Counted from the first letter of the stretch, positions 8,050 through 64,000 are shown. The stretch is 64,000 bases of DNA from Bacteroidota bacterium (GCA_046046325.1 JBJOJZ010000079.1:7274-71273), one strand, 5' to 3'. Made by a program: numbers and translations. Notes: generated by a model not told the origin, from the sequence alone.

Positions 8050-8967
8050 TTATGAAATAGAAAAACAATCACCATCCTTCACCGCAGTGGTATTCGAAAA
8101 CACACCTTTTGCCTCCTCTTCAAGCTCCAATATATTGGAGTATCTCGAAGAATAATGTCCAATAAGTAAGTGGTTTACACCTACGTTCAATGCCTGTAAA
8201 CCTGCGTCTTCCGCCGTGGAATGAAACGTTTCATTGGCCCTTTTTTTACGATCCTTAAGAAACGTAGCTTCATGGTATAAGGTCGTGGTCCCCTCCAAAT
8301 AGTTGGTCAACGCCTTAAAAGGCATAGTATCGGAACAATAGGCATAGGCACGTGCTTTGGGTTTGGGTAAAGCAAAATCTTCAAACCTCATCCAGGTTCC
8401 ATCCATCCGCTGAAAGTCGCATCCTTCTGCCAATAATTTTCGGTGCTCATTCGATACCGCATGAAGCTCTAATTTACGTTTATCTAAAGGAAAACGTTGG
8501 TGCTTTTCTTCAATTTGAAAACCAAATGTTTTGATCCTGTGACGCAATGGAAAAGCAAAAATGCTCAAACCTGCATCTTCAAAAATAAGGTGTTTTTCTT
8601 CCTTTTCAATCGCGTGAAAGGTAAATGGAAAATCCAATCGAGTTTGGCTAGCATTGAAGATAACTTGAAGAATATTATGTAATTCGGGCGGGCCAAAAAT
8701 TTCAATTCCTGATGTCCTTCCAAGCAAACTCATGGTTCCGAGAAGCCCTGGAAGACCGTAGAAATGATCTCCATGCAAATGAGAAATTAAAATCGTGTTG
8801 ATGCGCTGTATCGACAAGTTAAATTTTCGAAGTTGCAATTGAGTGCCTTCACCGCAATCGATCAGGATACTTCGATTATTACAAGTAACAAGCTGCCCCG
8901 AACATGAACGCTCCAAACTTGGAACGGCGGCAGAACTCCCTAAGATGTGAACGGAAAAATTATTCAA
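8050..8967 (-). CDS. rnz: ribonuclease Z (metallo-beta-lactamase tRNA 3' endonuclease)
   Basis: HxHxDH motif (ISHLHGDHFYGLPGLL). Length 305 aa. The start overlaps the upstream STAS stop by 8 nt. Confidence 0.88.
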   Translation of the reverse strand: MNNFSVHILGSSAAVPSLERSCSGQLVTCNNRSILIDCGEGTQLQLRKFNLSIQRINTILISHLHGDHFYGLPGLLGTMSLLGRTSGIEIFGPPELHNILQVIFNASQTRLDFPFTFHAIEKEEKHLIFEDAGLSIFAFPLRHRIKTFGFQIEEKHQRFPLDKRKLELHAVSNEHRKLLAEGCDFQRMDGTWMRFEDFALPKPKARAYAYCSDTMPFKALTNYLEGTTTLYHEATFLKDRKKRANETFHSTAEDAGLQALNVGVNHLLIGHYSSRYSNILELEEEAKGVFSNTTAVKDGDCFSIS

Positions 8968-9298
8968 AATCCTTTAACGCCTCGTCCATGGTTGAATATA
9001 TATTCAATACGGATGATAATTGCGCAATCTCAATCATTTTTAGCACCATAGGTTGTATGTTACTGATTGCAAAAGTACCATTGGTGTCCTTACACAAACG
9101 ATTACCCACTAAAATTGCACTTAACCCAGAAGAATCACAAAACTTTGTTTTTTCGAGATTTAATAGCATTTTATTTAGCCCTTTCTTTTGTTCGAATGTG
9201 AATATCCCTTTCAATTCTGGAGCCGACTGAGTATCCAATCGTTCCGCAAGTACATGGACAAATAATACATCGTTTCGGACTTCAATCTTGAAACTCAT
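8960..9298 (-). CDS. STAS-domain protein (anti-sigma-factor-antagonist-like)
   Basis: SpoIIAA-like core with the conserved phosphorylatable-serine context (FCDSSGLSAILVG). The ATG at 9298 (MSFKIEVRND) is preferred; the track start at 9349 would overlap the pyrB 3' end by 23 nt. Confidence 0.75.
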   Translation of the reverse strand: MSFKIEVRNDVLFVHVLAERLDTQSAPELKGIFTFEQKKGLNKMLLNLEKTKFCDSSGLSAILVGNRLCKDTNGTFAISNIQPMVLKMIEIAQLSSVLNIYSTMDEALKDFE

Positions 9299-9326
9299 GG
9301 CAGGAATTTTACCAAATATACCAAAT

Positions 9327-10256
9327 TTAGCGTTCAATACTCGAGGCAAGTAAATAAATTACCGCCATGCGAACGGCAACACCGTTTTCTACTTGATTCA
9401 AAATTATACTATTAGGACTATCGGCAACTTCGGATGTAATTTCAACTCCGCGGTTTATAGGTCCTGGATGCAATAGCACTATTTCTTTTCCCAATGAATC
9501 TAATATCGACTGACTTAATCCAAAATTCAAGGTATAGTCCCTTAAACTTGGGAAATACTCGGTTTCTTGACGCTCCAACTGAATGCGTAACATGTTGGCA
9601 ACGTCACACCAAAGCAAAGCCTCCCTAAGGTTATTTGAAACATGAACTTGCAAATGTTGAATATGTTTTGGCATTAAAGTGGAAGGACCACAAACCATTA
9701 CCTCAGCACCTAATTTTTGCAAACAGTAAATATTGGAAAGTGCTACTCTAGAATGCAATATATCGCCTATGATAGCCACCTTTTTACCTTTTAAATCTCC
9801 CAATGTTTCTCGTATTGAGTAAGCGTCTAAAAGGGCTTGTGTAGGATGTTCGTGTGTTCCGTCACCCGCATTGATAATTTTTGCAGAGGTATGTTGTGAT
9901 AAAAAGAGTGCTGCTCCAGGAGAAGCGTGCCTTAATACCACCATATCCACTTTCATTGCCAGAATGTTATTCACGGTATCAATCAAGGTTTCCCCTTTTT
10001 TAACAGAACTGTTGGAGGCCGTAAAATTCACAACATCCGCCGATAATCGTTTCGCTGCAAGCTCAAAAGAAAGACGAGTTCTCGTCGAATTTTCAAAGAA
10101 CACATTCGCTAGGGTAATGTCGCGTAACGAAGGAACTTTTTTAATAGGCCGATTGATGACCTCTTTGAAAGCATCAGCCGTCTTAAAAATGGTTTGAATA
10201 TCCGTCAAGTTTAAATCACGTATACCCAGTAAATGTGGGACGCTTAAATTATTCAT
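9327..10256 (-). CDS. pyrB: aspartate carbamoyltransferase catalytic subunit
   Basis: STRTR carbamoyl-phosphate motif (FFENSTRTRLSFE), HEHPTQALLD and HPGPINRG. Confidence 0.93.
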   Translation of the reverse strand: MNNLSVPHLLGIRDLNLTDIQTIFKTADAFKEVINRPIKKVPSLRDITLANVFFENSTRTRLSFELAAKRLSADVVNFTASNSSVKKGETLIDTVNNILAMKVDMVVLRHASPGAALFLSQHTSAKIINAGDGTHEHPTQALLDAYSIRETLGDLKGKKVAIIGDILHSRVALSNIYCLQKLGAEVMVCGPSTLMPKHIQHLQVHVSNNLREALLWCDVANMLRIQLERQETEYFPSLRDYTLNFGLSQSILDSLGKEIVLLHPGPINRGVEITSEVADSPNSIILNQVENGVAVRMAVIYLLASSIER

Positions 10257-10806
10257 TGGAATGTTTTATGTATAATTCCACCCTATCCTCACCCTCAATG
10301 TTTTTCCAGCTTACATGGACTCGTTCATGGTTCAAGGTATCCACGGATTTACCGATATAATCTGCTTGAATTGGAAGATCTCGTTTAAACCTACGATCAA
10401 TTAGGACCAATAATTGAACTTGGCTCGGTCGCCCAAAGGTCAAAAGTGCGTCTAGTCCCGATCGAATTGTTCTACCCGTAAATAGCACATCGTCCACTAA
10501 AATCACTTTTTTATTTTCGATGCTAAAGTCAATATTGGTTACACTTGGTATCAAAGGAATTTCCCTCCGGCGAAAATCGTCGCGGTAAAAGGTAATGTCT
10601 AAATTCCCACATAAAGGTTGGGTGGGAAGAATTTCATTAAGTTTTTCACGCATACGTGATACTAAATGAACGCCACGTGGCTGCAAACCAATTAAAACGG
10701 AATTGGAAAAATCAGCATGTTGTTCCAGCAATTCATGACATAACCGAGTTACGGTTAAATCAAACTGTTGAGGATCTAGGATGACCTGTTTCTCCATGCT
10801 CAACAA
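10249..10806 (-). CDS. pyrR: bifunctional pyrimidine operon regulator / uracil phosphoribosyltransferase PyrR
   Basis: PRPP-binding loop VILVDDVLFTGRTIR. Length 185 aa. Overlaps the pyrB start by 8 nt. Confidence 0.88.
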   Translation of the reverse strand: MLSMEKQVILDPQQFDLTVTRLCHELLEQHADFSNSVLIGLQPRGVHLVSRMREKLNEILPTQPLCGNLDITFYRDDFRRREIPLIPSVTNIDFSIENKKVILVDDVLFTGRTIRSGLDALLTFGRPSQVQLLVLIDRRFKRDLPIQADYIGKSVDTLNHERVHVSWKNIEGEDRVELYIKHSNE

Positions 10807-52167: not shown

Positions 52168-54228
52168 TTATAACACGTTGTTTTCTTTCATTACACGGTT
52201 CAGCCAACGTAACATTAAAAACAATAATAAGGCGGCACCTAATACTAAGGCAAAATTCAGGTAAAAGAAATTTTGCTTACTGTTGGCATCAAAGCCTTCC
52301 CAAAGACTCGAAAGCATACCCGACATTTTGTTACCAACAGAAATGGCAAGGAAATACCCCCCCATCATTAATGCCGTGATACGTGGAGGACTTAATTTAG
52401 ATACTAAAGACAATCCCATCGGGGATAAACAAAGTTCACCAATGGTAATTACCCCATAAGACGCTAACAACCACATGGAGCCTGCCTTTGCACTTAACCC
52501 ATTGGTAGCAAACACGGCTCCCACCATGACAAGCGCCGACAAGGCCGTTATAACTAATCCGATGGCAATCTTAGCTGGCGTACTCGGTTCTTTTTTCTTT
52601 CTACGGAAAAAGCCCCAAATGCCAACCATAACAGGCGTTAATACGACCACCCAAAATGGATTAATGGATTGATAAAGCTCCGTTGAATACAATTTCAAAT
52701 TAGGTACTTCCGTATTGGATTTTTGAATTAATTGATTCTCGTTTAGGTAATCATATACATGTTGCGCTGATTGAAGCGCTAAAAGTTCCCCTTGCAATGC
52801 TTTTTGTTCAACGGTATCTTTAGCCTTAGCAAGTGCCGTCTCCGTTGCCTTAATTTGCTTGGAAGTCTCCGTTGCAAGCAGTTCGATTGATTTCTTGTCG
52901 CTGAGCACGCTTGGAAGTTGCTGACTTGGAGTTTCTGCTAATCGAATAAGCATTAATTTCTCCGAATCTTGCAAGATCGAATCGCTTTCAATGGTGGCAT
53001 TAAGGGCAGGTTCTATCTTATTGGCCTCTAAGGCAGGAATATCAGATTTCGATAAATTGGTGAAATACTTATACGATTTGTCGATACGTTCAATTTTCTC
53101 GGCACATTCCTTGAGGTTTTTAAAATCTTCCTTTGTTTCTTTCGGCAGTGCAGATTGAGTTACATTCAAAAAACTCATAGAGGCGTCATAGGAAGCTTTA
53201 TCTCGTATCATCGGACTGTTTTCAACCAACTGCGCCATGCCAGCAGCATCTGCTGCACCTGTTATACTCGAAGACATTTCACGATCTGTATAATCTTCAG
53301 CCCATACGGTAAGTGCATCCCCATTTTGATGAAATATCGCAAAGAATAAAATAACACAGGTAAATACCGCCAAAAGGGCCTTTATTGCACGACTTTCTTT
53401 AGCCTCTGATTTAAAGGCAAGGTAAATAAAGAAGCCAATAACCGGCAGACACCCGATAATAAATGCATCGTTCGTATCAGTTCCCAACAAATTCCCTGGA
53501 ATCAAGTAACCAATGATGCCAAAAACAAACATTGGAAGTACGGTTAAACCTAATATTTTAAGGGTTGACATATCCCCTTCCTGCAAGGGTTTTACCACAT
53601 CGTAATGCTTAATGTGTTTGTTCCCAATGGAGAAAATTACCACTCCCAACAACATGCCAACTCCTGCAGCAGCGAAGGCATGACCCCAACCGTAATTGAT
53701 TCGCATGAAAGCTGCAACAAAATTACATACGAAGGCACCAATATTAATTCCCATATAGAAGATGTTAAATCCAGCATCTTTTTTATCCTTCAAAGAATCT
53801 TCACTGTATAAATTACCTACCAAGGTTGAAATATTCGGCTTGAAAAACCCATTACCAAGAATGATGAGAAGAAGCGCCGCGTAGAAACTTGGTATGGTGT
53901 GCATCGCTAACATGAAATAACCAGCAGCCATCATCAATCCACCAATAATGATTGATCTTCGATAACCTAATAATCGATCGGCCAACAATCCTCCAATAAA
54001 CGGTGTTAAATAGACCAATCCTAAGTACGTACCATAAATATCCGATTTCAATTGACCATCAAAACCCATTCCCCCGTTGTTCCAACCGTCAAGCATATAG
54101 AGTGAAAAAATCCCGAGCATTAGGTAATACCCAAAGCGTTCCCACATCTCAGTTCCAAACATGAACCATAGTCCTTTCGGGTGACCGAAAAGCATTTGAA
54201 TTTCATTCTTATTGTTAGCGTTACTCAT
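52168..54228 (-). CDS. POT/PTR2-family peptide transporter with ~210-aa loop insertion
   Basis: TEMWERFGYYLMLG, GGLLADRLLG, GFFKPNISTLVG. There is a long hydrophilic helical insert between FFAIFHQNGDALTVWA and YQSINPFWVV. Confidence 0.85.
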   Translation of the reverse strand: MSNANNKNEIQMLFGHPKGLWFMFGTEMWERFGYYLMLGIFSLYMLDGWNNGGMGFDGQLKSDIYGTYLGLVYLTPFIGGLLADRLLGYRRSIIIGGLMMAAGYFMLAMHTIPSFYAALLLIILGNGFFKPNISTLVGNLYSEDSLKDKKDAGFNIFYMGINIGAFVCNFVAAFMRINYGWGHAFAAAGVGMLLGVVIFSIGNKHIKHYDVVKPLQEGDMSTLKILGLTVLPMFVFGIIGYLIPGNLLGTDTNDAFIIGCLPVIGFFIYLAFKSEAKESRAIKALLAVFTCVILFFAIFHQNGDALTVWAEDYTDREMSSSITGAADAAGMAQLVENSPMIRDKASYDASMSFLNVTQSALPKETKEDFKNLKECAEKIERIDKSYKYFTNLSKSDIPALEANKIEPALNATIESDSILQDSEKLMLIRLAETPSQQLPSVLSDKKSIELLATETSKQIKATETALAKAKDTVEQKALQGELLALQSAQHVYDYLNENQLIQKSNTEVPNLKLYSTELYQSINPFWVVVLTPVMVGIWGFFRRKKKEPSTPAKIAIGLVITALSALVMVGAVFATNGLSAKAGSMWLLASYGVITIGELCLSPMGLSLVSKLSPPRITALMMGGYFLAISVGNKMSGMLSSLWEGFDANSKQNFFYLNFALVLGAALLLFLMLRWLNRVMKENNVL

Positions 54229-54302
54229 AGTTAGTTTTTAAGATTATTGCTGCCGAATATACAAAAAAACACGTGACTAAGCGATTTTTCTTAATTCGCC
54301 CT

Positions 54303-54310
54303 TAATTTTG
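54303..54310 (+). promoter_or_regulatory. candidate -7 box for tatD-tcdA
   Basis: TAATTTTG. 7 nt to the ATG. Confidence 0.4.
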
Positions 54311-54317
54311 AATTGAA

Positions 54318-54932
54318 ATGAAATTTTACAACGTTCATACCCACCGTTTACGCTCCCATGAAGTCGCCATCGTACAATCCGTCAATGCCCCGATAAATCA
54401 TTGTCATTCCTCAGGAATACATCCTTGGTTTGCGGACTCTGCCCTCCTGCCCTCGTTGGCAATTGCCTTGGAACATCCTGCATGCAAGGCCCTTGGCGAA
54501 GTGGGTTTGGATCGAATTAAAGGTCCCAGCATAGAAATTCAATGTAATATACTCGAGAAGCAACTATCCCTTGCTGCTAAGCACCATAAACCGGTCATTT
54601 TCCATATCGTTCGCGCTTGGGAAGAATTTTACGCCCTGCAGAGAACTCAGCAAGTAACTCCTTGGGTTCTGCACGGCTTCAACCAACCAAGGCAATTCCC
54701 TAGGTTACTCGATACCCCGGTATACCTCAGCATAGGTCCAGGTGCTTTGTCCAACCTCGCCATGCATCCCTTGCTTTCAAAAATCCCCCTCGAGCGCTTG
54801 TTGTTTGAAACCGACGATAGCGACAAGGAGATTCAGACGGTTTACCACCGTTTTTGCGGCATAACAGGATTCGAACTCATGGCGCTATCTCGACAAATCG
54901 AACAGAATTTTTTGGCTATTTTTGGGGCATGA
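54318..54932 (+). CDS. TatD-family metal-dependent hydrolase (short)
   Basis: N-terminal HTH motif (NVHTH), EVGLD and ETD blocks. Length 204 aa. Confidence 0.7.
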   Translation: MKFYNVHTHRLRSHEVAIVQSVNAPINHCHSSGIHPWFADSALLPSLAIALEHPACKALGEVGLDRIKGPSIEIQCNILEKQLSLAAKHHKPVIFHIVRAWEEFYALQRTQQVTPWVLHGFNQPRQFPRLLDTPVYLSIGPGALSNLAMHPLLSKIPLERLLFETDDSDKEIQTVYHRFCGITGFELMALSRQIEQNFLAIFGA

Positions 54933-55651
54933 ATCATTGGTTGGAAAGGTCGGAACTGTTGATCGGTTCAGAAAAACTCGAAAAACTGGCGAAATCGCAC
55001 GTAATGATTGTTGGACTCGGTGGCATTGGATCGTTTGCCGGAGAATTCATTGCACGGGCGGGCGTGGGCACGCTGACCCTCATCGACGGCGACGTCTTCG
55101 ATCCCACCAACAAAAACCGTCAGCTAACGGCCTTGGATTCCACCATTGGAAAAAACAAGGCGGTTGTTTTAGCCGAACGCATCAAGGACATTAATCCGAA
55201 TGCCAAGGTAAATGTACTCGAAGAATTTGTAGTTCCAGAAAGGGTTTGGGAGTTGCTCAACGAATACCAACCGGACTACGTAATGGACTGTATCGACTCA
55301 GTTTCACCCAAACTTGCGTGGTTGCTCTGCTGTAAAAAGCAGAAGATTAAAGTGATTACCCACTTGGGCGCTGGGGGTAAATCGGATCCTTCCACGGTGC
55401 ACGTAGCCAACTTGGTCGACACCCACAATTGCAAGCTGGGTTCGCACATCAAAAAACGCATCAAGCGTCAAGGCGCCTCATTGAGAGGCATCAAGGCCGT
55501 ATTTTCTTCCGAATTGCAGGATAAAAAATCGCTTAAAATGACGGATGGAACGAAATTCAAAAAATCCTTTTATGGAACCATTAGCTACATGCCGGCACTC
55601 TTTGGCTTACACGGTGCGGCGGAGGTGATTCGGTATTTGAGTTCGAAGTAG
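54929..55651 (+). CDS. tcdA: tRNA threonylcarbamoyladenosine dehydratase (ThiF/E1-like)
   Basis: VGLGGIGS nucleotide loop, LIDGDVFD..N.NRQ and DCIDS. The ATG at 54929 forms an ATGA overlap with the tatD stop. Confidence 0.8.
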   Translation: MNHWLERSELLIGSEKLEKLAKSHVMIVGLGGIGSFAGEFIARAGVGTLTLIDGDVFDPTNKNRQLTALDSTIGKNKAVVLAERIKDINPNAKVNVLEEFVVPERVWELLNEYQPDYVMDCIDSVSPKLAWLLCCKKQKIKVITHLGAGGKSDPSTVHVANLVDTHNCKLGSHIKKRIKRQGASLRGIKAVFSSELQDKKSLKMTDGTKFKKSFYGTISYMPALFGLHGAAEVIRYLSSK

Positions 55652-55709
55652 AGTGCCTTTGAGAATGAACTTTCGAATACGAAAAACGTTTTAAATTTTA
55701 ACCATTAAC

Positions 55710-56717
55710 ATGACATACACCCTACGCTTTATCCGCTTCCAATGGATTACCTTAATTGGCTTGTTTTTGGTGATTTGTGCCGGCAGTTTTGTGCGCATCA
55801 CAGGTTCCGGCATGGGTTGTCCGGACTGGCCTAAGTGTTTTGGACAATGGATTCCTCCGACCGCAGAATCGCAGCTTCCTTCGAATTATTTATCTATTTT
55901 TCAAGAGAAACGTGCGAAAAAAGCCGTTAAGTTCTGTGCTTTTCTGAGAAAATTAGGGATGGAAGAAACCGCTCGAAAAATCGAGACTGACCCTACGCTT
56001 CTGCAAGAAGAACCTTTTAATGCTGCGAGAACGTACACGGAATACATCAATCGTTTGCTCGGATTTCTTGCGGGCAACCTGATGCTGGCGGGTTTCTTTT
56101 GGAGCGTGCTTTTCTACCGAAAGCGCTGGCTGTTAACGTTATCCGCCATCAACCTGGTGCTCATCGCCGTGGAGGCGTGGTTTGGTTCGATCGTGGTTGC
56201 AACGAACTTGGTGCCTTGGACAATCACCGTGCATTTATTCCTAGCCTTGGTCATTTTACTCATCCAACTTTACGTGATTTATCGGATTTCGCCGAAGCAT
56301 GGTGTGAAAATTCCTGTCAACCAACTGACCTTCTATATTTGGTGGGCGGTCTTTGCCATTACTTTTTACCAAATGTTTCTGGGTACTCAGGTACGAGAAT
56401 ACATTGACGCCCTAACGAAACAAGGATTAGGCAGGGAGGCCTGGAGCGATTATTTGGGGATCGAATTCTTCATTCACCGCAGTTTCAGCTGGTTGGTGTT
56501 GGTGTTGTTGGCTTATTTGGCGTGGAGAAATGAACGTGGTGAAAAAATTTCCGTAATCCGTTGGGCTTTTGGGGTATTGGGCATCGAACTTACTGCTGGA
56601 GTCTTATTGGCCTACTTTGATTTACCTGGATTAGTTCAGACCTCCCACTTGCTATTTGCCGTAGTTGTGCTCGCATTGCTTGGCATGGGGGTTTATCGAT
56701 TTAGAAAAACTGCTTAA
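55710..56717 (+). CDS. ctaA: heme A synthase (COX15/CtaA family)
   Basis: GSGMGCPDWPKC motif. About 8 TM segments with conserved His residues (TVHLFLA, TSHLLFA). Confidence 0.85.
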   Translation: MTYTLRFIRFQWITLIGLFLVICAGSFVRITGSGMGCPDWPKCFGQWIPPTAESQLPSNYLSIFQEKRAKKAVKFCAFLRKLGMEETARKIETDPTLLQEEPFNAARTYTEYINRLLGFLAGNLMLAGFFWSVLFYRKRWLLTLSAINLVLIAVEAWFGSIVVATNLVPWTITVHLFLALVILLIQLYVIYRISPKHGVKIPVNQLTFYIWWAVFAITFYQMFLGTQVREYIDALTKQGLGREAWSDYLGIEFFIHRSFSWLVLVLLAYLAWRNERGEKISVIRWAFGVLGIELTAGVLLAYFDLPGLVQTSHLLFAVVVLALLGMGVYRFRKTA

Positions 56718-56737
56718 CTTTAAACAAACTTCTACCT

Positions 56738-57772
56738 ATGAAACATTATCTACTTTTTGCTGCAGGAATTTTTGCCGTAACGTGTAATGCACAAATTACC
56801 CTCGACCAAGGGGACATGCCCTCCGTGGGCGACAACATTCCTAGAAAATCCGACACCATGACCGTTTTAGCCGGTCCCGGGGGCAGCGGTCCGAACCAAA
56901 CGTGGAATTTCACAGCTACCAGCAACTATGTTATTACCGAGAATACCAGCGTGGTATCGGTAGCGTCAACGCCCAACGGAAACCAATTTGGGAATTCCAA
57001 CATGGCCATGACCAACGACAACGCGAGTTATTTGTACTTTAATAAAAGTGCTCAATCGTTCACCACTCAAGGATTTTCTGGAGATTTATTGGGTTCAGGC
57101 ATCATCAATGCCGTGTTCAACCCGGATTTAACCTTGCATCAATTTCCGAGAACTTTTGGTTCGAGTTTCAACGACAGCTATGTCATTGACGTGATTGTAC
57201 CAGGGGCAGCCTTCAATCCCTTGGTAAGTCAGATCCGTTTTAAGCGATCTTCGATGGTCCACGACACCACCGATGCTTGGGGACAAATCACCACCCCGCA
57301 CGGAACCTATGACGTATTGCGCATTCACACCACGGAAACGTTCACCGATTCCATTTGGGCTTTGCCGATATTTCCACCAACTTGGAGTTTGGTGAGCACG
57401 AGTTCGGACGTTACCAACAGCTATTCTTGGGTGGGTAAAGGCGGTAAATTGGCTATTGCGGAGATGAGTTTCGACACCCTAGGAGCTCCAAAGATTTTTA
57501 AATGGACAGAACTTCCTGGAATTGGTGTGGGGTTAGAGGAGTCCAATGTTGCCAACCTGGAAATTTATCCAAATCCGTGTGGCGATGCGATAACAGTTTC
57601 TGTTGATGTGGAACAACTTGGAGAAGCATATGCTGTGTTTGACCCGCTGGGAAAACGCATACTTGAAGGAACCGTTTGCGCTGAAGTACAACCAATCAGA
57701 ATGGACAACTTACCTTCTGGAAATTATATCTTGCGCATTGGAACGCAATGTTGCAGGTTAACAAAATCCTAA
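56738..57772 (+). CDS. secreted protein with T9SS C-terminal sorting domain
   Basis: Signal peptide (AVTCNAQ). C-terminal ~70 aa resemble the type-A T9SS CTD (LEIYPNPCGDAITVS...LPSGNYILRI). The passenger domain is unknown. Confidence 0.65.
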   Translation: MKHYLLFAAGIFAVTCNAQITLDQGDMPSVGDNIPRKSDTMTVLAGPGGSGPNQTWNFTATSNYVITENTSVVSVASTPNGNQFGNSNMAMTNDNASYLYFNKSAQSFTTQGFSGDLLGSGIINAVFNPDLTLHQFPRTFGSSFNDSYVIDVIVPGAAFNPLVSQIRFKRSSMVHDTTDAWGQITTPHGTYDVLRIHTTETFTDSIWALPIFPPTWSLVSTSSDVTNSYSWVGKGGKLAIAEMSFDTLGAPKIFKWTELPGIGVGLEESNVANLEIYPNPCGDAITVSVDVEQLGEAYAVFDPLGKRILEGTVCAEVQPIRMDNLPSGNYILRIGTQCCRLTKS

Positions 57773-57784
57773 GCCCTCGGCTTA

Positions 57785-58291
57785 TCAACGGTACAATTCA
57801 TAAGGAGAAACTTCAACGAGTTGTCCTTTGCGGTTTTTCACCAAATAGTTGACGTAATAACTGAGGTCATTCCCTCCTACTTTAACCTCCACGATTACCG
57901 CACTGGTGGAATCCACTTTAAACCTTGCGACATCTCCGGGTCTAAACTCTGTGATTTCCAGCACGCGGTCGCGGAGTTTTGCGTTGTAAATCACGGCTCT
58001 CATGGGATGGTAATAGTCTACCCAATCTTGCAAAGAATCACGCTTTTGAGTCATGCGCCGATACTCCTTTTGCATGGATTTAAGTTCCGAATTTAACTCC
58101 TTCATCTGTTCCTTAAAGACCTTGGCTTGTTGCTCCGAGTCGCGCTTTTGGTCCATTAAGGATTTAATCAGTAAAAAAATCAAAACAGCCACCATCAAAC
58201 CCACGACAGCGTAAATGACCATCTTGCTTAATTCCACTTTCTTGGGAGCTTCAGGAGGAAGAGTATTCATATCGTTTTCTAATTGTTGCAT
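57785..58291 (-). CDS. single-pass membrane protein with coiled coil and small C-terminal beta domain (unknown function)
   Basis: TM helix MVIYAVVGLMVAVLIFLLI, heptad-rich KEQMKELNSELKSMQKEYRRM and a C-terminal beta-rich ~60 aa. Lies 50 nt downstream of the 1119-aa gene with no promoter box or terminator between them. Confidence 0.65.
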   Translation of the reverse strand: MQQLENDMNTLPPEAPKKVELSKMVIYAVVGLMVAVLIFLLIKSLMDQKRDSEQQAKVFKEQMKELNSELKSMQKEYRRMTQKRDSLQDWVDYYHPMRAVIYNAKLRDRVLEITEFRPGDVARFKVDSTSAVIVEVKVGGNDLSYYVNYLVKNRKGQLVEVSPYELYR

Positions 58292-58341
58292 CGAAAGTAC
58301 TTAAAAATATAAGTTGTTAAAAATCGAATGATCACAACCCT

Positions 58342-61300
58342 TTAAAAACCCAAGCCTTTAAATGCTTTAATCTCCTTGATTTTATGTTCAAATTCAGCAA
58401 GCACCTTTGGCAATTCCTGTTCGTTGTTCACAGGAACCCAATGCTGCAATTCAATTTTAGATGGAACGATTTTTTTACCCCAAAAGTCGACCCTAAAACC
58501 GGGCCATCCGAAAAAGGCTACGGGAATAATTTTGATGAATTTCGCATTGAAAGCGCTTTCAAAGGTGAGTTCTAAGGTGGAAAAACCATCGTTCAATCCT
58601 TCTAAATCGCTGAGCGTTTGCCAGTTCTTTTTATCCACGGAATACATGATATGAAAACGTGTTACATAACTTTTACCGTGAGGTGCTCCCTTAAGGACTA
58701 GTTGCGAAACGGACATTGCCTCGGGAAGTTCCACTTGCCACCATTGTTTATCGTCTTGCTTTGCGGCACACCAGTACGTTTTTTCATTAGAAATTAATGC
58801 GTGGTGGGCTTTGTAATTGCGGTTATAATCGGAAGAAGAGGTCATAACTGCCGAAGAATTGCTTAGGATCCAGTAAGGATCGTTCAATGCGGCCTCGCCT
58901 TTGGTTACAAATTTCCAACTTGAATCGTTATTGGCTTTATTCTGCATTTGTTCCATCAATTGCGCTCCTTTGAGGGAATCTCCGACGTGCAACACCACTC
59001 CCGCCATCATTTGATCTTGTTGGAACTCCAACCCCCAACCCAACCAATGCGCTACGCCCTTACCAGAATAAACATAATCCAAGAATCGATAACCTTTCAT
59101 CCAATTGCGTTCACGGGTGATGGTATTGGAGAAAAGTCCTTGAAGCGATGGATTAATTTCCTCCAAAACCTCCGCCATTGAATTACCGAAACGGGTTAAC
59201 ACGGGTTGGGTTAACTTCAATCCAAGGAATGAGACATACGATTTTGAACAAGCATCCGCCAAAGCAGTTAAAAAGAAGGAGGTCAAAGGTCGAGGGTCAA
59301 ATCGTTCCAAATCCTCCACTTTACATTGGACTAAAAACTTACTGCGTTTAAAGTGGAAACGTGCATTTTCAAACGATAGACCTTCCAAGGACTCAAGGAT
59401 TCTTTCAACAGGTTCATGGATTTCAGGTTGCAAATAACCCGCGCAGGAAATATAAATTAAGTAATTCAGTTCATTGTTAAAATAGTCTTGTTTGATTTGA
59501 AAACTAATGCACAAGGGATACCCTTTGATTCTTGGTCGGAATTCACGGGAAAAGTAACCCAAATGCACACTACCTTTCAAACCATCGTTAGAAAGTTGGT
59601 TGTCGCTCGAATCCTGGGTTTCCATTCCTTCATCCACTTCATCCCCCCCTTGGTCGGAAGGAAGGTCTTCTTCCGTGGCCTCACTTAAACCGCAACCCAA
59701 CAGAAGGTCTTCAAGGCTGGTTAGCTTACTCCTAATGAGCGCTTCATCTTGATCAATTACGTAAGACCCGTTGAGCATATTTTGGTAATCCCGGTTGACC
59801 GCCTCAAATACCCCCTTAAACAAGTTAAACGCGATATCAAAGCTATCGATAAGAACGGATGGATTGGCAATGATCTCCTCCACTTTATGGTAGAATTGAA
59901 TTTGATCAAATCCATAAATAAAATCATAGAACCAAGGAAAACGGCTCATCGACTCGGTAAAGGAGTAATAGGTGTTATTGTTCAGGCTGTCCCATAAAAC
60001 AAGGTTAGGGTATTTTTTCAAATCTTCCGAATACTCCATGGCGAAAGACTTCAAATGTTCTACAAAAACATTGAGAAGGAGCCCATAATTTTCTAAGTCT
60101 TTGTAATCCTTCCAATCAGGAAGATATCCAATAGCAGCGCCGCCGGACGAATAAAGGGAAAAGTGCAGGGCTAGAATTTTCTTACTGGGTAAATTCTTAG
60201 GATATAAGGTACACCATGCATACCCTGTCATAACGCCAATTTGCCAATTGTTTTGTTTGGTATCCCATTCGGAATCTTCGTCCAAACATAGTTTTGTTAA
60301 CCGAGATTGTACGAAATGGTCTAATGAAGCGAAAGCGGTACGATGCCAATATTCCTTGGTGCCGAATTTATACGAATCTTCCCTTATTTTAAAGATACTC
60401 TCCTTGGTTGCGTGTCTAAATACTCCCATACCAATCAACCACTTATGGGCTGCCATTAAACCTTGAAAATCGGTTAATTCCTCTATGGTAAACTGCAGTA
60501 CCTTATTCCTTCGAACCTCATCCGGGTCAACATTCAAGGCAAAGGTTCGTTCCAAAAAAACTTTATCAAATGTTACGTTATCCACCCCGTATTGTTGCCC
60601 GGTAAGTTTTAACAAAAATTCATTGTAGGTTTTCGTGGTTATAGCATGGTCAACGACCTCTATAAAACGTTTATCTACCTCCGGAAAAGGGTCTTCAATG
60701 TTCAACTCAGTTGCAACACTTACAATCAAGGCTTTCACTTGTTCCTTGGATAATCCCATGCGGGTTTTGCCAATAGACTCAAAGAAATTTAGCTCATCTA
60801 AGCTAATTTGTTCATCATCCAAAGCTGCCTTTATCGATTCTTTTAGATCTTCTACTGTCGCTTTGTTTCGGAGCTCCTCTTCTTCTTGACGTATTTTCTC
60901 AACGGCTTCCTTTCCAGCGCGAAGAAGCAATTTCCAATCCGAAAGCAACACGGTATCATTCGCCGCAAACACCTTAATACCTTCCGGATAATCGGCGGTT
61001 TTAGTTACTTCCAGAGGTTCGTTACTGTCTTCGCTGATCAGAGTAAGCACCCCCTGTTCGTTGCTGTCCACCACAAACTGACGAAACTCCCAAATCTTCC
61101 CAAGTTCATTGATTACCTGGTTTAAAGCGCTTTCTAAAAACGGGTTTGTTGCATCAAAATACTCCTCGCTGAAAGGCCAAGAAACTATTTTTCCTTTCAC
61201 TTCCTTGTGTGGATGAGCAACGCGATTTCTAAGTTGAATGAAAACATCAAAAAACTCCAACAAATTCACCTTTCCAAGGTTATTCTTAAGAGCCTGCGAA

Positions 61301-61701
61301 ATGAGGTCAGCGTAATTCGGTTGATCGTTTTCTACCGCTGATTTCAGCGCACCGTATGCTTTCACGAATTTGGATAATTCAGGAAGCTCGTTTGAACCGT
61401 GTAAAAGTTCTTGTATTTCTGAGGGTTGCTTTTGTTGATACAAAAACTTGGAGGACTCCCGAAGCCAACCCAAGTATATGCCAAAACTGACATTTTTACC
61501 ATTCTTTAAAAACGACTTCTCAAGTTCGATTGAAACCAAGCCCGTTTCTTTATACTCGCCCAAAACAAAAGAACATAGATGCATTACTAGGCTTTCACCA
61601 AGGTCCAATAGGTACTTTTGCTTGGCCGCTTTTTCTCGTGCCCTTGCTAAATCGCTGATCGTTTTCTCAAGGTTCTTGGGGAGTTGGTTCGTGATATTCA
61701 T
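58342..61701 (-). CDS. large cytoplasmic multidomain protein: N-terminal HEPN-like (RNxxAH) region and C-terminal discoidin/F5-8 type C domain (function unknown)
   Basis: Uninterrupted ORF with no signal peptide. Motif FFDVFIQLRNRVAHPH, with RNRVAH encoded at 61213-61230. Acidic linker around 59590-59700. Discoidin signature at 58477-58869 (TYWCAAKQDDKQWWQVELPEAMSVSQLVLKG...YVTRFHIMYSVDKKNWQ...AKFIKIIP...FRVDFWG). The start is set at the ATG at 61701 (MNITNQ) because the upstream ATG (61728) lies inside the -7 box. The gene itself is well supported; the functional labels are low confidence. Confidence 0.8.
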   Translation of the reverse strand: MNITNQLPKNLEKTISDLARAREKAAKQKYLLDLGESLVMHLCSFVLGEYKETGLVSIELEKSFLKNGKNVSFGIYLGWLRESSKFLYQQKQPSEIQELLHGSNELPELSKFVKAYGALKSAVENDQPNYADLISQALKNNLGKVNLLEFFDVFIQLRNRVAHPHKEVKGKIVSWPFSEEYFDATNPFLESALNQVINELGKIWEFRQFVVDSNEQGVLTLISEDSNEPLEVTKTADYPEGIKVFAANDTVLLSDWKLLLRAGKEAVEKIRQEEEELRNKATVEDLKESIKAALDDEQISLDELNFFESIGKTRMGLSKEQVKALIVSVATELNIEDPFPEVDKRFIEVVDHAITTKTYNEFLLKLTGQQYGVDNVTFDKVFLERTFALNVDPDEVRRNKVLQFTIEELTDFQGLMAAHKWLIGMGVFRHATKESIFKIREDSYKFGTKEYWHRTAFASLDHFVQSRLTKLCLDEDSEWDTKQNNWQIGVMTGYAWCTLYPKNLPSKKILALHFSLYSSGGAAIGYLPDWKDYKDLENYGLLLNVFVEHLKSFAMEYSEDLKKYPNLVLWDSLNNNTYYSFTESMSRFPWFYDFIYGFDQIQFYHKVEEIIANPSVLIDSFDIAFNLFKGVFEAVNRDYQNMLNGSYVIDQDEALIRSKLTSLEDLLLGCGLSEATEEDLPSDQGGDEVDEGMETQDSSDNQLSNDGLKGSVHLGYFSREFRPRIKGYPLCISFQIKQDYFNNELNYLIYISCAGYLQPEIHEPVERILESLEGLSFENARFHFKRSKFLVQCKVEDLERFDPRPLTSFFLTALADACSKSYVSFLGLKLTQPVLTRFGNSMAEVLEEINPSLQGLFSNTITRERNWMKGYRFLDYVYSGKGVAHWLGWGLEFQQDQMMAGVVLHVGDSLKGAQLMEQMQNKANNDSSWKFVTKGEAALNDPYWILSNSSAVMTSSSDYNRNYKAHHALISNEKTYWCAAKQDDKQWWQVELPEAMSVSQLVLKGAPHGKSYVTRFHIMYSVDKKNWQTLSDLEGLNDGFSTLELTFESAFNAKFIKIIPVAFFGWPGFRVDFWGKKIVPSKIELQHWVPVNNEQELPKVLAEFEHKIKEIKAFKGLGF

Positions 61702-61721
61702 GCTAAAGATAATCTGTAGGG

Positions 61722-61729
61722 CAAACATA
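61722..61729 (-). promoter_or_regulatory. candidate -7 box for the 1119-aa HEPN-motif/discoidin gene
   Basis: TATGTTTG on the minus strand. It contains the ATG of the longer track ORF. 20 nt to the ATG at 61701. Confidence 0.45.
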
Positions 61730-61783
61730 CCTATTTTGAACCATTAGAATATCACATAAACATAATTATTTATCCAATTTATC

Positions 61784-61791
61784 TACCTTTG
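61784..61791 (+). promoter_or_regulatory. candidate -7 box for the DHH-motif ORF
   Basis: TACCTTTG. 16 nt to the ATG at 61808. Confidence 0.45.
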
Positions 61792-61807
61792 TTGACTCAA
61801 CCAAGCT

Positions 61808-64000
61808 ATGAAGTTTCACTACCATTTTATCCCACAGGGTGCAAGGGCTACTCACAACCTTGAAGAAAACACATTTACGGTGGATTACAATGCCGGAACG
61901 CGTGATAAACCGAACGCTGTTGTATTGAAACTTCCTGCGGATCAGACGGTCATTTTGGATACGGGAAATTTACTCCAACCTGGAATCATCGACCACCATC
62001 AGCCCGGTTGTGAATACAGTAATCAGTGCGTGGCATCCATTGTTGTACAACATGCAGAAAAATATCTGGGACATTGCCTCGGCAAAGATGAAGTTCATAT
62101 CGTGACGCATTTCTTGCCCGATTTAGACGCCATAAGTGCGGTTTATTTTGCTCAAAAATTCCTCAGCGGCCAACCGTTCAGCGCATTCGACGGATTGTTT
62201 TGCGATTATGTTAACATGGTGGATTTAGGAAAACTCATCCTTGATCCAGATCATCCCGTTGGTATTGCTTCGCTCTGGTTAAGCCATACGTCCAATGTTG
62301 ATTACGGGATCGCCTTTACCCAGGACTTCAACAAAAAACTACTTCAACAAGGTTTATCCTTCATCGAAGCGGTAATAACCGTAACTGAAGAAGAAGAGAA
62401 CCCTTGGATCAACCACGGATTTGACGAAGTAGCAAGCCTTCAGCCTCATTGCGACAAAATCATCAATGATGCGCACCAGTACGCAGAAGATTTTAAAAAC
62501 TCAGTTACTGGAATTGTGGAACTATACAACGCTGAAACAAGAGGATTCGACGAGGTTGAAGTCATCATTTCGAAAGAAGCAAAGAGTTTTCTGTGGAAAT
62601 ATTGGGTGCGCGGTGATCGTCGAAACACCTTGTTTAAAAGAGGGTTTGTTCTCACTTGTTTGCACTATCCGAATAAATCGATTATCAGCGTTCCTTCCAA
62701 CCTCCCATATCACTTGAAAGGATTGGGATTGTACATCGATAGCCTTGAAATTAAAGGGCTTTTAGCGCATAAAAATCAGCCGGAACTAACGGCAGCAATT
62801 GATGCCTTGGTAACAGGTAGCGAAGGCACCCCGAGGGTTGGATTTCACCGAAACGATCCATGGTATGATGGGCGTGGGGCCCACAATTTCACCATCATCG
62901 ACGTTCCACGAGCCGGTAGCTTGTTGGACCACGAAACCCTTGACGCCTCCATCTTCGCCTATCGTTTATGGAATGAATTTGGTCAAAAATTTAACCTAAC
63001 ATCCTTGGATGTTGCATCCCAAGAAGCCTTGTCGGCGGTAGAAGAACTTGCATTGAACGAACGTCCCTATTTTAATAAAACCAATGACAATTCCTCACTG
63101 CATTCTCAGATTGACGCCTACCACATTCGATTGGGTGTTAAACAGGTTCAATACCTATTGAATTCCTACGTTGACCATACGCATGACTTGAGCGAACGAA
63201 ATGTACAAAGTATCAAAGAATGGGTGGAAACGGCGGGTAACCATATTGAAGCATTAGTGACCGAACCCAGTAACGACGTATTCATCAATTCGGATCGCAT
63301 CAAAGATTTCATGATGGAACTCCATCGGATTTCCTTTTCCCAGTATGCCTTTATTGTTAAAGTTCGGCATTGGAGCACGTTGTTGGCGAAATACATTGCG
63401 GAAGGATTCTCCTTTTTTCACTCAAGGGCGTTTGACGACCAAAAAAACGAGCTAGTTGAAAAGTTGGAGCCCTACATTAATCCGACGTTTGCGAGAACCA
63501 TGCTCGATGTGTGCCAAAGCCTACCGGTAAAATCGTTTTCGTTGCTCTTCATTAAAATCGAAAAGGACATTAAGAATTCCGATTTGTTTTACTCCTTATT
63601 GGCCTATCAGAGCGTTTTCAGTCGAGCGTTTTCTCCTCAGTCTATTCAAGAGTTTTTTACAGGTAACGTAAAAATATCTTCCGACTGTTCGGACCTGGTG
63701 GGTGCCATTGAATACGAAAAATGGGATGAACCTTTCTTTGAAGAGATACCATTGTATTCTTATAATAGCATCAAGAACTATGCTGACGATTTATTCCACT
63801 TGCTCGAAATGGAAAATCCGGGGGCTTTGAGAATGGAGGCTTTGCACGAATTCCAACAAACCGATTTTAAGCAAATCTTCGATGTTCAGTTGAACGCAAA
63901 TTCCCATAAATCCCTTGAAAAATTAACCACCTTTTTTTCGGAAAATAAACAACAAATAGTAAAACAACTTTTTGGGGAAAATTGCAAAAATTTACGCAAG
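61808..64000 (+). CDS. large ORF (at least 731 aa, 3' end outside window) with DHH/MYG1-like phosphoesterase motifs; absent from the supplied ORF track
   Basis: The ATG at 61808 is the first start after an in-frame TGA (61793-61795). I translated the frame by hand to nt 64000 (731 codons) without meeting a stop. Motifs: VILDTGN-x8-IIDHHQ (DHH at 61991-61999), HFLPDLDAIS (62108-62137), DGRGAHNF (62867-62890). A perfect -7 box lies 16 nt upstream. The gene itself is well supported; the functional label is low confidence. Confidence 0.8.
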   Translation, partial: MKFHYHFIPQGARATHNLEENTFTVDYNAGTRDKPNAVVLKLPADQTVILDTGNLLQPGIIDHHQPGCEYSNQCVASIVVQHAEKYLGHCLGKDEVHIVTHFLPDLDAISAVYFAQKFLSGQPFSAFDGLFCDYVNMVDLGKLILDPDHPVGIASLWLSHTSNVDYGIAFTQDFNKKLLQQGLSFIEAVITVTEEEENPWINHGFDEVASLQPHCDKIINDAHQYAEDFKNSVTGIVELYNAETRGFDEVEVIISKEAKSFLWKYWVRGDRRNTLFKRGFVLTCLHYPNKSIISVPSNLPYHLKGLGLYIDSLEIKGLLAHKNQPELTAAIDALVTGSEGTPRVGFHRNDPWYDGRGAHNFTIIDVPRAGSLLDHETLDASIFAYRLWNEFGQKFNLTSLDVASQEALSAVEELALNERPYFNKTNDNSSLHSQIDAYHIRLGVKQVQYLLNSYVDHTHDLSERNVQSIKEWVETAGNHIEALVTEPSNDVFINSDRIKDFMMELHRISFSQYAFIVKVRHWSTLLAKYIAEGFSFFHSRAFDDQKNELVEKLEPYINPTFARTMLDVCQSLPVKSFSLLFIKIEKDIKNSDLFYSLLAYQSVFSRAFSPQSIQEFFTGNVKISSDCSDLVGAIEYEKWDEPFFEEIPLYSYNSIKNYADDLFHLLEMENPGALRMEALHEFQQTDFKQIFDVQLNANSHKSLEKLTTFFSENKQQIVKQLFGENCKNLRK

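Follow-up and report, generated by a model that had tools for sequence, protein, structure and literature searches.

HEPN ribonucleases (RNases) occur among defence and abortive-infection proteins such as AbiD/F, ApeA, PrrC/RloC and Csm6/Csx1, and include the RiboL-PSP-HEPN family. In Bacteroidota, the HEPN RNase Cas13b is reportedly found with the membrane proteins Csx27/Csx28, and its response is said to be modulated or amplified at the membrane. Here we describe a pair of very large, divergently oriented open reading frames (ORFs), ORF2 and ORF3, at the end of a 64,000-nucleotide (nt) stretch of Bacteroidota DNA (GCA_046046325.1 JBJOJZ010000079.1:7274-71273; the whole stretch is hereafter called the window). 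ORF2 carries a HEPN-like and a discoidin domain, ORF3 a DHH-like domain and six transmembrane helices. Judging from sequence comparisons, we propose with moderate confidence that the two make up a dispensable cassette that undergoes recombination and most likely serves as a conflict system, of the anti-phage or abortive-infection type.

Two further bodies of work bear on this locus. Chi et al. (2023; PMC10600005) described an effector pair of CorA and NrN, a DHH phosphodiesterase, in type III-B CRISPR with S-adenosylmethionine-AMP (SAM-AMP) signalling, common in Bacteroidota. In that work a degrading phosphodiesterase is the obligate partner of the CorA effectors and is fused to some of them; the motifs of NrN stand in canonical order, with DHH at residues 85-87. 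Kaur et al. (2021; PMC8195603) proposed that intracellular lectin domains of the discoidin fold act as invader sensors, with NPCBM and FGS domains fused to TIR or kinase effectors, and that diversification of paralogues widens recognition.

The two genes lie in the window as follows (aa, amino acids).

58342..61701, minus strand: ORF2, HEPN-like/discoidin giant; likely coding sequence, 1119 aa from M10
61808..64000, plus strand: ORF3, first 731 of 1420 aa; open at the window end, with the remainder beyond the window

Linkage, loss and recombination of the pair

Neighbourhoods were inspected around ORF2 homologues, ORF3 homologues and a DUF481 gene used as an anchor; all relatives of ORF2 and ORF3 are metagenomic, and loci are cited by L numbers. 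An ORF2-family gene immediately adjoins every full-length ORF3-like gene that has enough flanking sequence, and this adjacency is seen in 14 or more distinct loci, with four different gene orders and identities down to about 30%. The genes are divergent in the window and in L006, L011-L015, L017, L042-L048, L055, L068 and L126. The order is ORF3 then ORF2 in L021, and ORF2-like then ORF3 in L009/L010, where ORF3 shows 31% full-length identity (E = 1e-175) and the ORF2 relative (1301 aa) lacks the discoidin domain. In L125 and L128/L129, ORF3 is followed, directly or after a 73-aa gene, by an ORF2-related protein of 831-835 aa. These shorter partners share with ORF2 only the HEPN-like N-terminal 200 aa (32% identity), where the Rx4H motif reads IRNTYAHP or IRNINAHP, and the region of the NNWQIG motif; what is conserved is thus the pairing of ORF3 with the ORF2 N-terminal core, and the C-terminal part can be exchanged. 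The pair is also found beside insertion-sequence transposases (IS66, IS21 or IS3), which flank it in L125 and L126, and it occurs without DUF481 in L009, L021, L125, L126 and L128.

Upstream of the ORF3-like gene, L125 (247-537) and L128 (7552-7839) carry a gene of about 95 aa with a weak Bflower_3 match, which may be a third component of the short-partner variant.

The original prediction had grouped ORF2 and ORF3 with a third gene, ORF1, as one module whose members should co-occur and stay adjacent. ORF2 and ORF3 indeed proved to be a conserved linked pair; ORF1 is not linked to them, being confined to the closest genomes and retained in L046, where the other two are missing, and the module is accordingly reduced to two genes.

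The site of the pair, ctaA-PorSec-ORF1-[ORF2-ORF3]-DUF481-aat, is empty in L046, L047, L050, L053 and L058-L061. In L046, where ctaA is 86% and DUF481 78% identical to the window, ORF2 and ORF3 are missing and 182 nt separate ORF1 from DUF481; a remnant of ORF3, its last ~27 codons (...FFSFFSEKIFGGGNE and the stop), persists directly before DUF481 (L046:9800-10010), so that a single deletion took ORF2 and nearly all of ORF3 and spared ORF1. L047, L050, L053 and L058-L061 show ctaA-PorSec-DUF481-aat with no genes between, L047 having also lost most of ORF1, and the pair is kept in L048, L055 and L068 despite equally diverged DUF481. Since empty and occupied sites alternate among comparable relatives, we regard the pair as dispensable and repeatedly lost. 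A variable position downstream of ctaA had been suggested, and the same ctaA-to-aat site is indeed occupied in some relatives and empty in others; the alternative then offered, that these are lineage-conserved core genes, gives way to an accessory status.

ORF2 is also duplicated and mosaic. Two tandem full copies are present in L006 (10001-16875), each only 64-65% identical to the window ORF2, in a locus whose flanking proteins are 96-99% identical to the window; L048 (7-5746) carries two copies, and L045 (1-5566) two copies and a fragment of about 200 aa. The L006 paralogues are reciprocally mosaic relative to the single window copy, with segments of 20-52% versus 86-98% identity: both resemble the window ORF2 in aa 150-400; the first stays close to it over aa 350-650 and drops to 32-46% in aa 800-1128, and the second drops to 20-52% in aa 400-850 and returns to 86-94% identity in aa 900-1128. 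Relative to L042, the synonymous divergence (dS) of ORF2 ranges from 0.03 (aa 401-900) to 0.9-1.7 (aa 1-200), pointing to recombination between alleles. The ratio of nonsynonymous to synonymous divergence (dN/dS) is 0.09-0.14 for ORF2 and 0.08-0.09 for ORF3, and 0.01-0.21 in every segment along the genes, which signifies purifying selection and argues that both genes are functional and constrained. Together, selection and mosaicism suggest that ORF2 diversifies by module exchange and duplication and not by a point-mutation arms race.

Domains of ORF2 and ORF3

The core of ORF2 is named by no family in Pfam, NCBIfam, PHROGs or PADLOC; its sole recognised part is the C-terminal F5/8 type C (discoidin) domain, and every one of the 88 clusters of the family at 90% identity is labelled hypothetical. 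Both giant genes are thus as uncharacterised as had been stated, databases naming only the discoidin domain. AlphaFold (AF2) models of full ORF2 and of aa 1-950 (mean predicted local distance difference test, pLDDT, 83-84) give the order all-helical N-terminal domain, small beta domain, long helical region, two alpha/beta domains and discoidin sandwich. The following features, like all ORF2 residue numbers here, use the 1128-aa numbering.

61084..61686, minus strand: HEPN-like all-helical N-terminal domain of ORF2 (aa 15-215); AF2 model, pLDDT 80-92
61213..61230, minus strand: RNRVAH, the Rx4H (HEPN-type) motif of ORF2; invariant in family alignments
59689..60267, minus strand: first alpha/beta domain of ORF2 (aa 488-680) with the NNWQIG..YxW motif; AF2 model and conservation
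59593-59679, minus strand: acidic disordered linker of ORF2 (aa 684-712); pLDDT below 50
58927..59577, minus strand: second alpha/beta domain of ORF2 (aa 718-934), after the acidic linker; pLDDT 85-97
58429..58851, minus strand: discoidin (F5/8 type C) lectin-fold domain of ORF2 (aa 960-1100); Pfam PF00754

The N-terminal part of the model is confident and all-helical over aa 18-214, with the RNRVAH motif at the end of helix 156-171. R167, N168, H172 and P173 (RNRVAHP) never vary among family members, whether 27 or 50 are aligned; E32, E45, E58 and Y59, in the helices preceding the motif, are invariant in the family too, and the Rx4H motif is kept without exception in distant relatives of 831-1301 aa. 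PF18735 (HEPN_RiboL-PSP) matches three of the 27 members, sub-threshold, with 20.3 bits at best against a cut-off of 28.4 bits. In the homologue P0076, aa 15-192 align to positions 12-176 of the 191 in this profile (E = 5.7e-4, below the curated cut-off), and the window ORF2 itself gives no PF18735 match in the Pfam scan. Because an invariant motif and a sub-threshold match are not joined by a structural match, we name the domain HEPN-like and not HEPN. The HEPN-type motif first pointed out from the sequence thus stands among the most conserved features of the family; the fold itself was not recovered by structure search.

W488, W495 and G498 of the first alpha/beta domain are invariant, and its NNWQIG motif is retained in P0087 and in the 833-aa protein of L128. 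The second alpha/beta domain is the most variable region of ORF2 between close strains. About 650 aa of the protein are confidently folded and have no significant structural counterpart in PDB or BFVD. The aa 1-950 model comes closest in PDB to 2a8e (probability 0.99, template-modelling (TM) score 0.51, E = 0.085), a B. subtilis structural-genomics protein of unknown function; the match is given for the model as a whole. The discoidin domain is matched by PF00754 at E = 4.6e-22 (78.9 bits against a cut-off of 28.2 bits), by neuropilin b1, CASPR2 and lactadherin C2 in Foldseek (E about 1e-8, TM 0.7-0.84), and in PDB profile searches down to 1e-42; both Foldseek of the full model against PDB and the full-alignment PDB profile search returned discoidin matches only. 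ORF2 has no signal peptide, transmembrane segment or type IX secretion tail, and its lectin domain is therefore predicted to be cytoplasmic.

Full-length ORF3 comprises an N-terminal DHH-like domain of ~400 aa, a helical region of ~750 aa and six C-terminal transmembrane helices (aa ~1156-1417), the six-helix domain being its best conserved part. Its N-terminal features fall within the window.

61808..63007, plus strand: DHH-like domain of ORF3 with swapped motif order (aa 1-400); invariant residues
61964-61969, plus strand: motif GN; G53-N54 invariant
61991-61999, plus strand: motif DHH; D62-H63-H64, (nearly) invariant across the domain family
62117-62128, plus strand: motif PDLD; DxD at 105-107, (nearly) invariant across the domain family
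62222-62224, plus strand: D139, (nearly) invariant across the domain family
62594-62617, plus strand: motif WKYWVRGD, conserved in the domain family
62714-62728, plus strand: motif LKGLG, invariant
62858-62875, plus strand: motif PWYDGR, invariant
62891-62908, plus strand: motif TIIDVP, TIxDxP in the domain family

Further invariant residues of this domain are D107, K264/R268/D270 and E314. Pfam DHH (PF01368) matches ORF3 weakly (E = 0.009; 16.7 bits against a cut-off of 28.1 bits), and six of 50 representatives of the N-domain family at E <= 8.4e-6. In a PDB profile search, the query segment HxxPDxD (profile positions 83-104) aligns to positions 14-35 of DHH phosphodiesterase chains and the segment IDHH (53-65) to positions 109-121; as the two motifs match these chains in reverse order, the motif order of ORF3 is swapped relative to canonical DHH enzymes. 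DHHA1 and DHHA2 were not found in ORF3 at E <= 1, nor among the 25 families matched by the 50 representatives (E <= 0.001). Of the DHH-type assignment initially made, the conservation of the motifs holds; their order is non-canonical and no DHHA1 accompanies them.

No Pfam, NCBIfam or PADLOC model covers the DHH-like domain itself. A word-indexed search with the 731-aa ORF3 fragment missed the 1420-aa protein itself and an 87%-identical relative, and is thus incomplete, so that absence from it is no evidence; the domain family was collected instead by running HMMER exhaustively against 1.84 billion representatives, and this search recovered a 1420-aa entry (P0109). Clustered at 50% identity, the family counts 1452 clusters, and 512 of these reach E <= 1e-30. 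Among the 50 representatives, the commonest fusion is to a C-terminal CorA-like region matching PADLOC CRISPR-type CorA models (14), followed by an N-terminal Ser/Thr kinase (11), a C-terminal TIR (10), HD-CE (2) and a guanylate cyclase domain (1). Standalone proteins of ~400 aa also belong to the family, and the ORF3-like form measures 1320-1420 aa. With the ORF3 membrane domain as query, only fragments of ORF3-like proteins were returned, and no other architecture.

Several DHH-like genes have neighbourhoods of their own. L123 (8001-14953) encodes a Ser/Thr-kinase/DHH-like fusion (702 aa) and then a 1599-aa WD40-repeat protein, with SMC-like ATPase and Metallophos genes upstream of the fusion and a PD-(D/E)xK protein downstream, a conflict-like context. 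A protein of 1221-1292 aa, with 32% identity between its two occurrences and faint CLIPPER/BatD matches, recurs beside DHH-like-domain genes in the two otherwise different contexts L009 (18582-22460) and L041 (4257-7922), as does a Phenol_MetA_deg-type outer-membrane protein. The gene after the standalone DHH-like gene of L041 encodes a 1371-aa AAA_16+TPR (STAND-like) ATPase. The large proteins beside a DHH-CorA fusion (L040) and beside the standalone gene of L041 were considered as ORF2 relatives and rejected, no relationship being detected.

Neighbouring genes and the control region

In 13-14 sister genomes ORF2 occurs without ORF3 and adjoins a CorA-like protein of 442 aa, which has two C-terminal membrane helices and matches PADLOC CRISPR-type CorA (E = 5.5e-10), and a protein of 158 aa with no match in Pfam, PADLOC or PHROGs. 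The usual order is CorA-like, 158 aa, ORF2, with 17-nt gaps and mostly as one operon, and in three genomes a ThsA-like SIR2 gene (E = 2.9e-33) lies upstream. ORF3 and the CorA-like gene never occur in the same neighbourhood among the loci inspected. ORF2 beside ORF3, ORF2 beside a CorA-like protein and the ORF3 N-terminal domain fused to CorA-like domains in hundreds of other proteins are three patterns that point in the same direction. The lead towards type III CRISPR signalling, raised in the original prediction from the HEPN and DHH motifs, was strengthened by these fusions and by the ORF2-CorA-like operon.

Together with DUF481, the CorA-like and 158-aa genes are kept side by side in another Flavobacteriales lineage, ORF2 being present or absent (L004:7349-13318), and in some of these genomes an 861-aa leucine-rich repeat protein as well as the ThsA-like SIR2 is encoded upstream. 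That the CorA-like 442-aa or the 158-aa protein might be a split ORF3 was considered and rejected, BLASTP and hhalign finding no homology; a CorA442 hidden Markov model gave one weak match among the DHH-CorA fusions.

Two further features flank ORF2 in the window.

57785..58291, minus strand: ORF1, 168 aa, single-pass membrane coiled-coil protein (weak DUF8429); neighbour of the pair
61702..61807, no strand: divergent control region of 106 nt with two TAnnTTTG boxes, one per strand

ORF1 has a single hydrophobic segment (aa 18-48) and then a coiled-coil-like stretch with weak coiled-coil-type matches. As had been noted, it follows ORF2 after 50 nt, and a search for a terminator-like site in this spacer found none, so that ORF1 is possibly co-transcribed with ORF2. 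Its homologues are restricted to L001, L006, L011, L012, L042, L043 and L046, and it is absent from all more distant ORF2/ORF3 loci. Small proteins near distant pairs (158 aa and 135 aa in L004, 127 aa in L009) were tried as its kin and dismissed, showing no similarity.

The longest ORF2 frame runs from 58342 to 61728 (minus strand; 1128 aa). Homologues begin at the equivalent of M10, which is nearly invariant, and the minus-strand box overlaps the first ATG of this frame; hence the 1119-aa form starting at 61701 is the probable real product. The minus-strand box is TATGTTTG at 61729-61722 (minus), and the plus-strand box is TACCTTTG at 61784-61791 (plus), 17 nt upstream of the ORF3 ATG. Both are kept in L006, L011 and L042, and the ORF2-side box also in L013, L048 and L015. 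The octamer is not enriched across the window (71 found versus 67.6 expected), and at this background frequency the boxes carry little weight when taken alone. The ORFs, motifs, spacing, divergent region and boxes are all present in the sequence as first reported.

Three contigs carry ORF2 by exact-protein look-up. One of them, L001, overlaps the window by 8416 bases with one mismatch and extends 8 kb past it; the full-length ORF3 of 1420 aa was read from this contig. The DUF481 outer-membrane gene follows ORF3 and is itself followed by a 56-aa gene, leucyl/phenylalanyl-tRNA-protein transferase (aat), OmpA, an ion channel and glutamate synthase. Further partners had been suspected beyond nt 64000; the 8-kb extension holds no additional candidate partner gene, only the rest of ORF3.

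The GC content of 58-64 kb is 0.41-0.42, like that of the remaining window and in line with the earlier impression that base composition resembles the surroundings. It reaches 0.45-0.465 over the TatD/ThiF/ctaA/PorSec genes (window 54001-58000), versus ~0.40-0.42 elsewhere, including ORF2/ORF3. PorSec (344 aa, with a type IX secretion tail; window 56738-57772), beside ORF1, is 74-78% identical in L011 and L012, versus 91-99% for ctaA, and both loci have an extra 285-aa gene between ORF1 and PorSec. This faster divergence and the extra gene suggest that the entire ctaA-to-DUF481 interval is variable.

Interpretation and comparison with described systems

We prefer a conflict system over a housekeeping function because ORF2 and ORF3 are a linked accessory pair, repeatedly lost and sometimes flanked by transposases; because ORF2 combines a constant, effector-like end with an opposite end that is modular, duplicated and recombining; and because relatives of the DHH-like domain are fused to TIR, kinase, HD and CRISPR-type CorA domains. 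From these features we infer candidate RNase and phosphoesterase activities, ligand sensing, action at the membrane and a role in defence. ORF2 would be a cytoplasmic sensor-effector, whose variable middle and C-terminal part, including the discoidin domain, may recognise an invader-derived molecule or a membrane-associated cue, and whose HEPN-like N-terminal domain (R167/H172) may serve as an RNase effector. ORF3 would be its obligate inner-membrane partner, with the six-helix domain acting as an anchor and/or a second effector, by analogy with the CorA-like proteins that replace ORF3 in sister loci. The DHH-like domain may, as NrN does for CorA (PMC10600005), hydrolyse a phosphodiester ligand or product and so restrain or reset the system, or it may sense a ligand.

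The context fits the defence role suggested in the original prediction, which we keep conditional, as a number of observations weigh against it. The cassette is fixed in the window lineage among housekeeping genes, with no integrase or other defence genes nearby, and the overlap of the ORF3 stop codon with the DUF481 start speaks for long vertical inheritance at this site and perhaps for an envelope role. Taxonomically, the ORF2 family has a narrow range, with 29 loci among 185,579 species genomes, nearly all of them metagenome-assembled genomes of freshwater Flavobacteriales or Crocinitomicaceae. Neither an ORF2 relative nor the DHH-like domain was found in the viral contigs searched. Foldseek of the aa 1-950 model against PDB and BFVD returned no HEPN and nothing at E <= 1e-3, and a PDB sequence-profile search with the alignment of the N-terminal 230 aa of ORF2 gave nothing relevant and no HEPN. 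In PADLOC-DB 2.0 (2023) neither ORF2 nor ORF3 matched any family at E <= 1, nor did full-length ORF3 at E <= 0.1. An enzyme that would make a signal was not found, nor were cyclase, Cas10, CARF or SAVED domains. Both genes are under purifying selection, and positive selection was not found for either in any dN/dS segment. Finally, the trio of CorA-like, 158-aa and DUF481 genes also exists with no ORF2 within 10 kb in another Flavobacteriales lineage (L064-L067, ~8179-10789), so that part of the association between ORF2 and CorA may reflect a shared DUF481 neighbourhood.

The stability of this trio is among the points favouring the main rival reading, an accessory membrane or envelope module, in which ORF3 (or the CorA-like protein) would work with DUF481 in transport, ion homeostasis or envelope stress, and ORF2 would serve as a cytoplasmic regulator or RNA-processing factor with a lectin domain. 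In 18 of the 39 ORF2-anchored loci, rearrangements notwithstanding, DUF481 is no more than a few kb from ORF2, the stop-start overlap with ORF3 is present in the window lineage, L045 and L048, Phenol_MetA_deg outer-membrane protein and OmpA genes occur near the L009 and L041 relatives, and purifying selection and the housekeeping context of the window suit such a module too. We nevertheless judge it unlikely: the pair does without DUF481 in five contexts, repeated loss, tandem copies and a mosaic ORF2 would be unusual for a transport module, and the fusion partners of the DHH-like domain and the ThsA-like SIR2 neighbour point to conflict systems. Small-molecule signalling independent of Cas10, with ORF2 making or binding a nucleotide-type signal, ORF3 as the membrane effector and the DHH-like domain degrading the signal, would explain why this domain is most often fused to CRISPR-type CorA-like domains and why the neighbour of ORF2 alternates between ORF3 and a CorA-like protein. 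CorA and a phosphodiesterase are obligately paired or fused in type III-B Bacteroidota systems (PMC10600005), and the unmatched folds of ORF2 leave room for an enzyme of a new kind. Set against this are the lack of a cyclase, polymerase-palm, CD-NTase or other nucleotidyltransferase signature in ORF2 or its neighbours, the lack of a CorA match in ORF3, for which hhalign finds no homology to the CorA-like or 158-aa proteins, and the few invariant acidic or His residues in the ORF2 core outside the HEPN-like domain; we consider such signalling quite improbable.

Strict two-gene linkage in any orientation, the HEPN-type motif, the joint rather than single loss of both genes and the transposases around the pair in L125 and L126 are what a toxin-antitoxin-like pair would show, ORF2 being the HEPN RNase toxin that ORF3 neutralises by membrane sequestration or by removing an activating nucleotidyl modification. 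At 1119 and 1420 aa, though, both proteins are far above the sizes of known toxin-antitoxin components (the toxin of HEPN-MNT pairs has ~130 aa). At least 14 genomes have ORF2 without ORF3, there is no MNT-type nucleotidyltransferase partner (no nucleotidyltransferase match was found in ORF1-3 with Pfam), and, so far as sampled, neither plasmids nor phages carry the pair, which makes this explanation very unlikely. Hardly credible by now, and largely refuted, is a three-gene module including ORF1 or, alternatively, a set of core genes: the close spacing of ORF1 without a predicted terminator and the ctaA...aat synteny of the nearest relatives speak for it, but ORF1 stays in L046 where ORF2 and ORF3 are deleted and is missing from distant pairs, and the empty sites show that the pair is not core.

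Returning to the conflict system, we tentatively speculate further that the DHH-like domain might be a large unnamed module of prokaryotic immunity, regulatory or enzymatic, coupled to CorA-like, six-helix, TIR, kinase and HD effectors, and that the pair might represent a new CRISPR-independent, membrane-coupled abortive-infection system, in which a lectin-type sensor with swappable modules controls a HEPN RNase and a giant membrane effector. A defence function would bring together, in a new architecture, a HEPN-like RNase, an intracellular discoidin sensor and a giant membrane partner, and its source would be abundant uncultured freshwater Flavobacteriales, a group whose phage defence is little explored. 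It would also draw attention to the unnamed DHH-like family (~1450 clusters), whose fusions suggest that it takes part generally in immune signalling or in controlling it, and would place CorA-like effectors, which have hitherto been examined only downstream of Cas10, in a setting independent of CRISPR. Should the function lie outside defence, the locus would still offer two large protein families whose folds are confident and unmatched, linked genetically in a clear and testable way.

Among the described systems, CorA/NrN resembles the pair in that ORF3 joins a membrane part to a DHH-type domain, in the occurrence in Bacteroidota, and in the CRISPR-type CorA found in the N-domain family and in the sister loci of ORF2. 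It differs in that the ORF3 membrane domain has six helices and full-length ORF3 no PADLOC or Pfam CorA match, in that DHH precedes DxD without DHHA1, whereas NrN is canonical, and in that the partner is the ~1100-aa HEPN-like/lectin protein ORF2 and not a Cas10 complex; no cas10/cmr or csm Pfam families among the called genes and no CRISPR array were found within 10 kb on either side (L001, L002, L004, L006, L007, L009). With the DHH/DHHA1 enzymes NrnA, GdpP, PggH and RecJ, ORF3 has in common the conserved HxxPDxD, D and DHH motifs and weak profile matches; it departs from them in the swapped order (DHH at 62-64, DxD at 105-107), in lacking DHHA1 and GGGH, and in the motifs WxRGD, LKGLG, PWYDGR and TIxDxP, which are specific to its N-domain family. 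Lectin-sensor conflict systems likewise join a cytoplasmic discoidin-fold domain to a putative effector, but the ORF2 domain is of the F5/8 type C and not NPCBM, its effector is HEPN-like, no STAND NTPase or Death-like adaptor is present, and the hosts are unicellular freshwater Flavobacteriales only.

Literature searches found no described HEPN/discoidin or rearranged-DHH/CorA system, and since the pair belongs neither to CorA/NrN nor to the canonical DHH/DHHA1 enzymes, HEPN-MNT pairs or PADLOC systems, we read its architecture as new. Cas13b with Csx27/Csx28 is similar in pairing a HEPN-type protein with a membrane protein in the same phylum, and dissimilar in that the pair has no CRISPR RNA-guided protein, ORF2 contains one HEPN-type motif, and no sequence relationship was detected. 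The HEPN defence proteins, of which PF18735 was the one family compared with ORF2, share with it an invariant Rx4H motif with N after R, a helical terminal domain and a variable, putatively sensing region; the overall architecture of ORF2 and its obligate giant membrane partner set it apart from every named system. By this analogy, the pair would in its working be most like an abortive-infection HEPN system equipped with a membrane partner.

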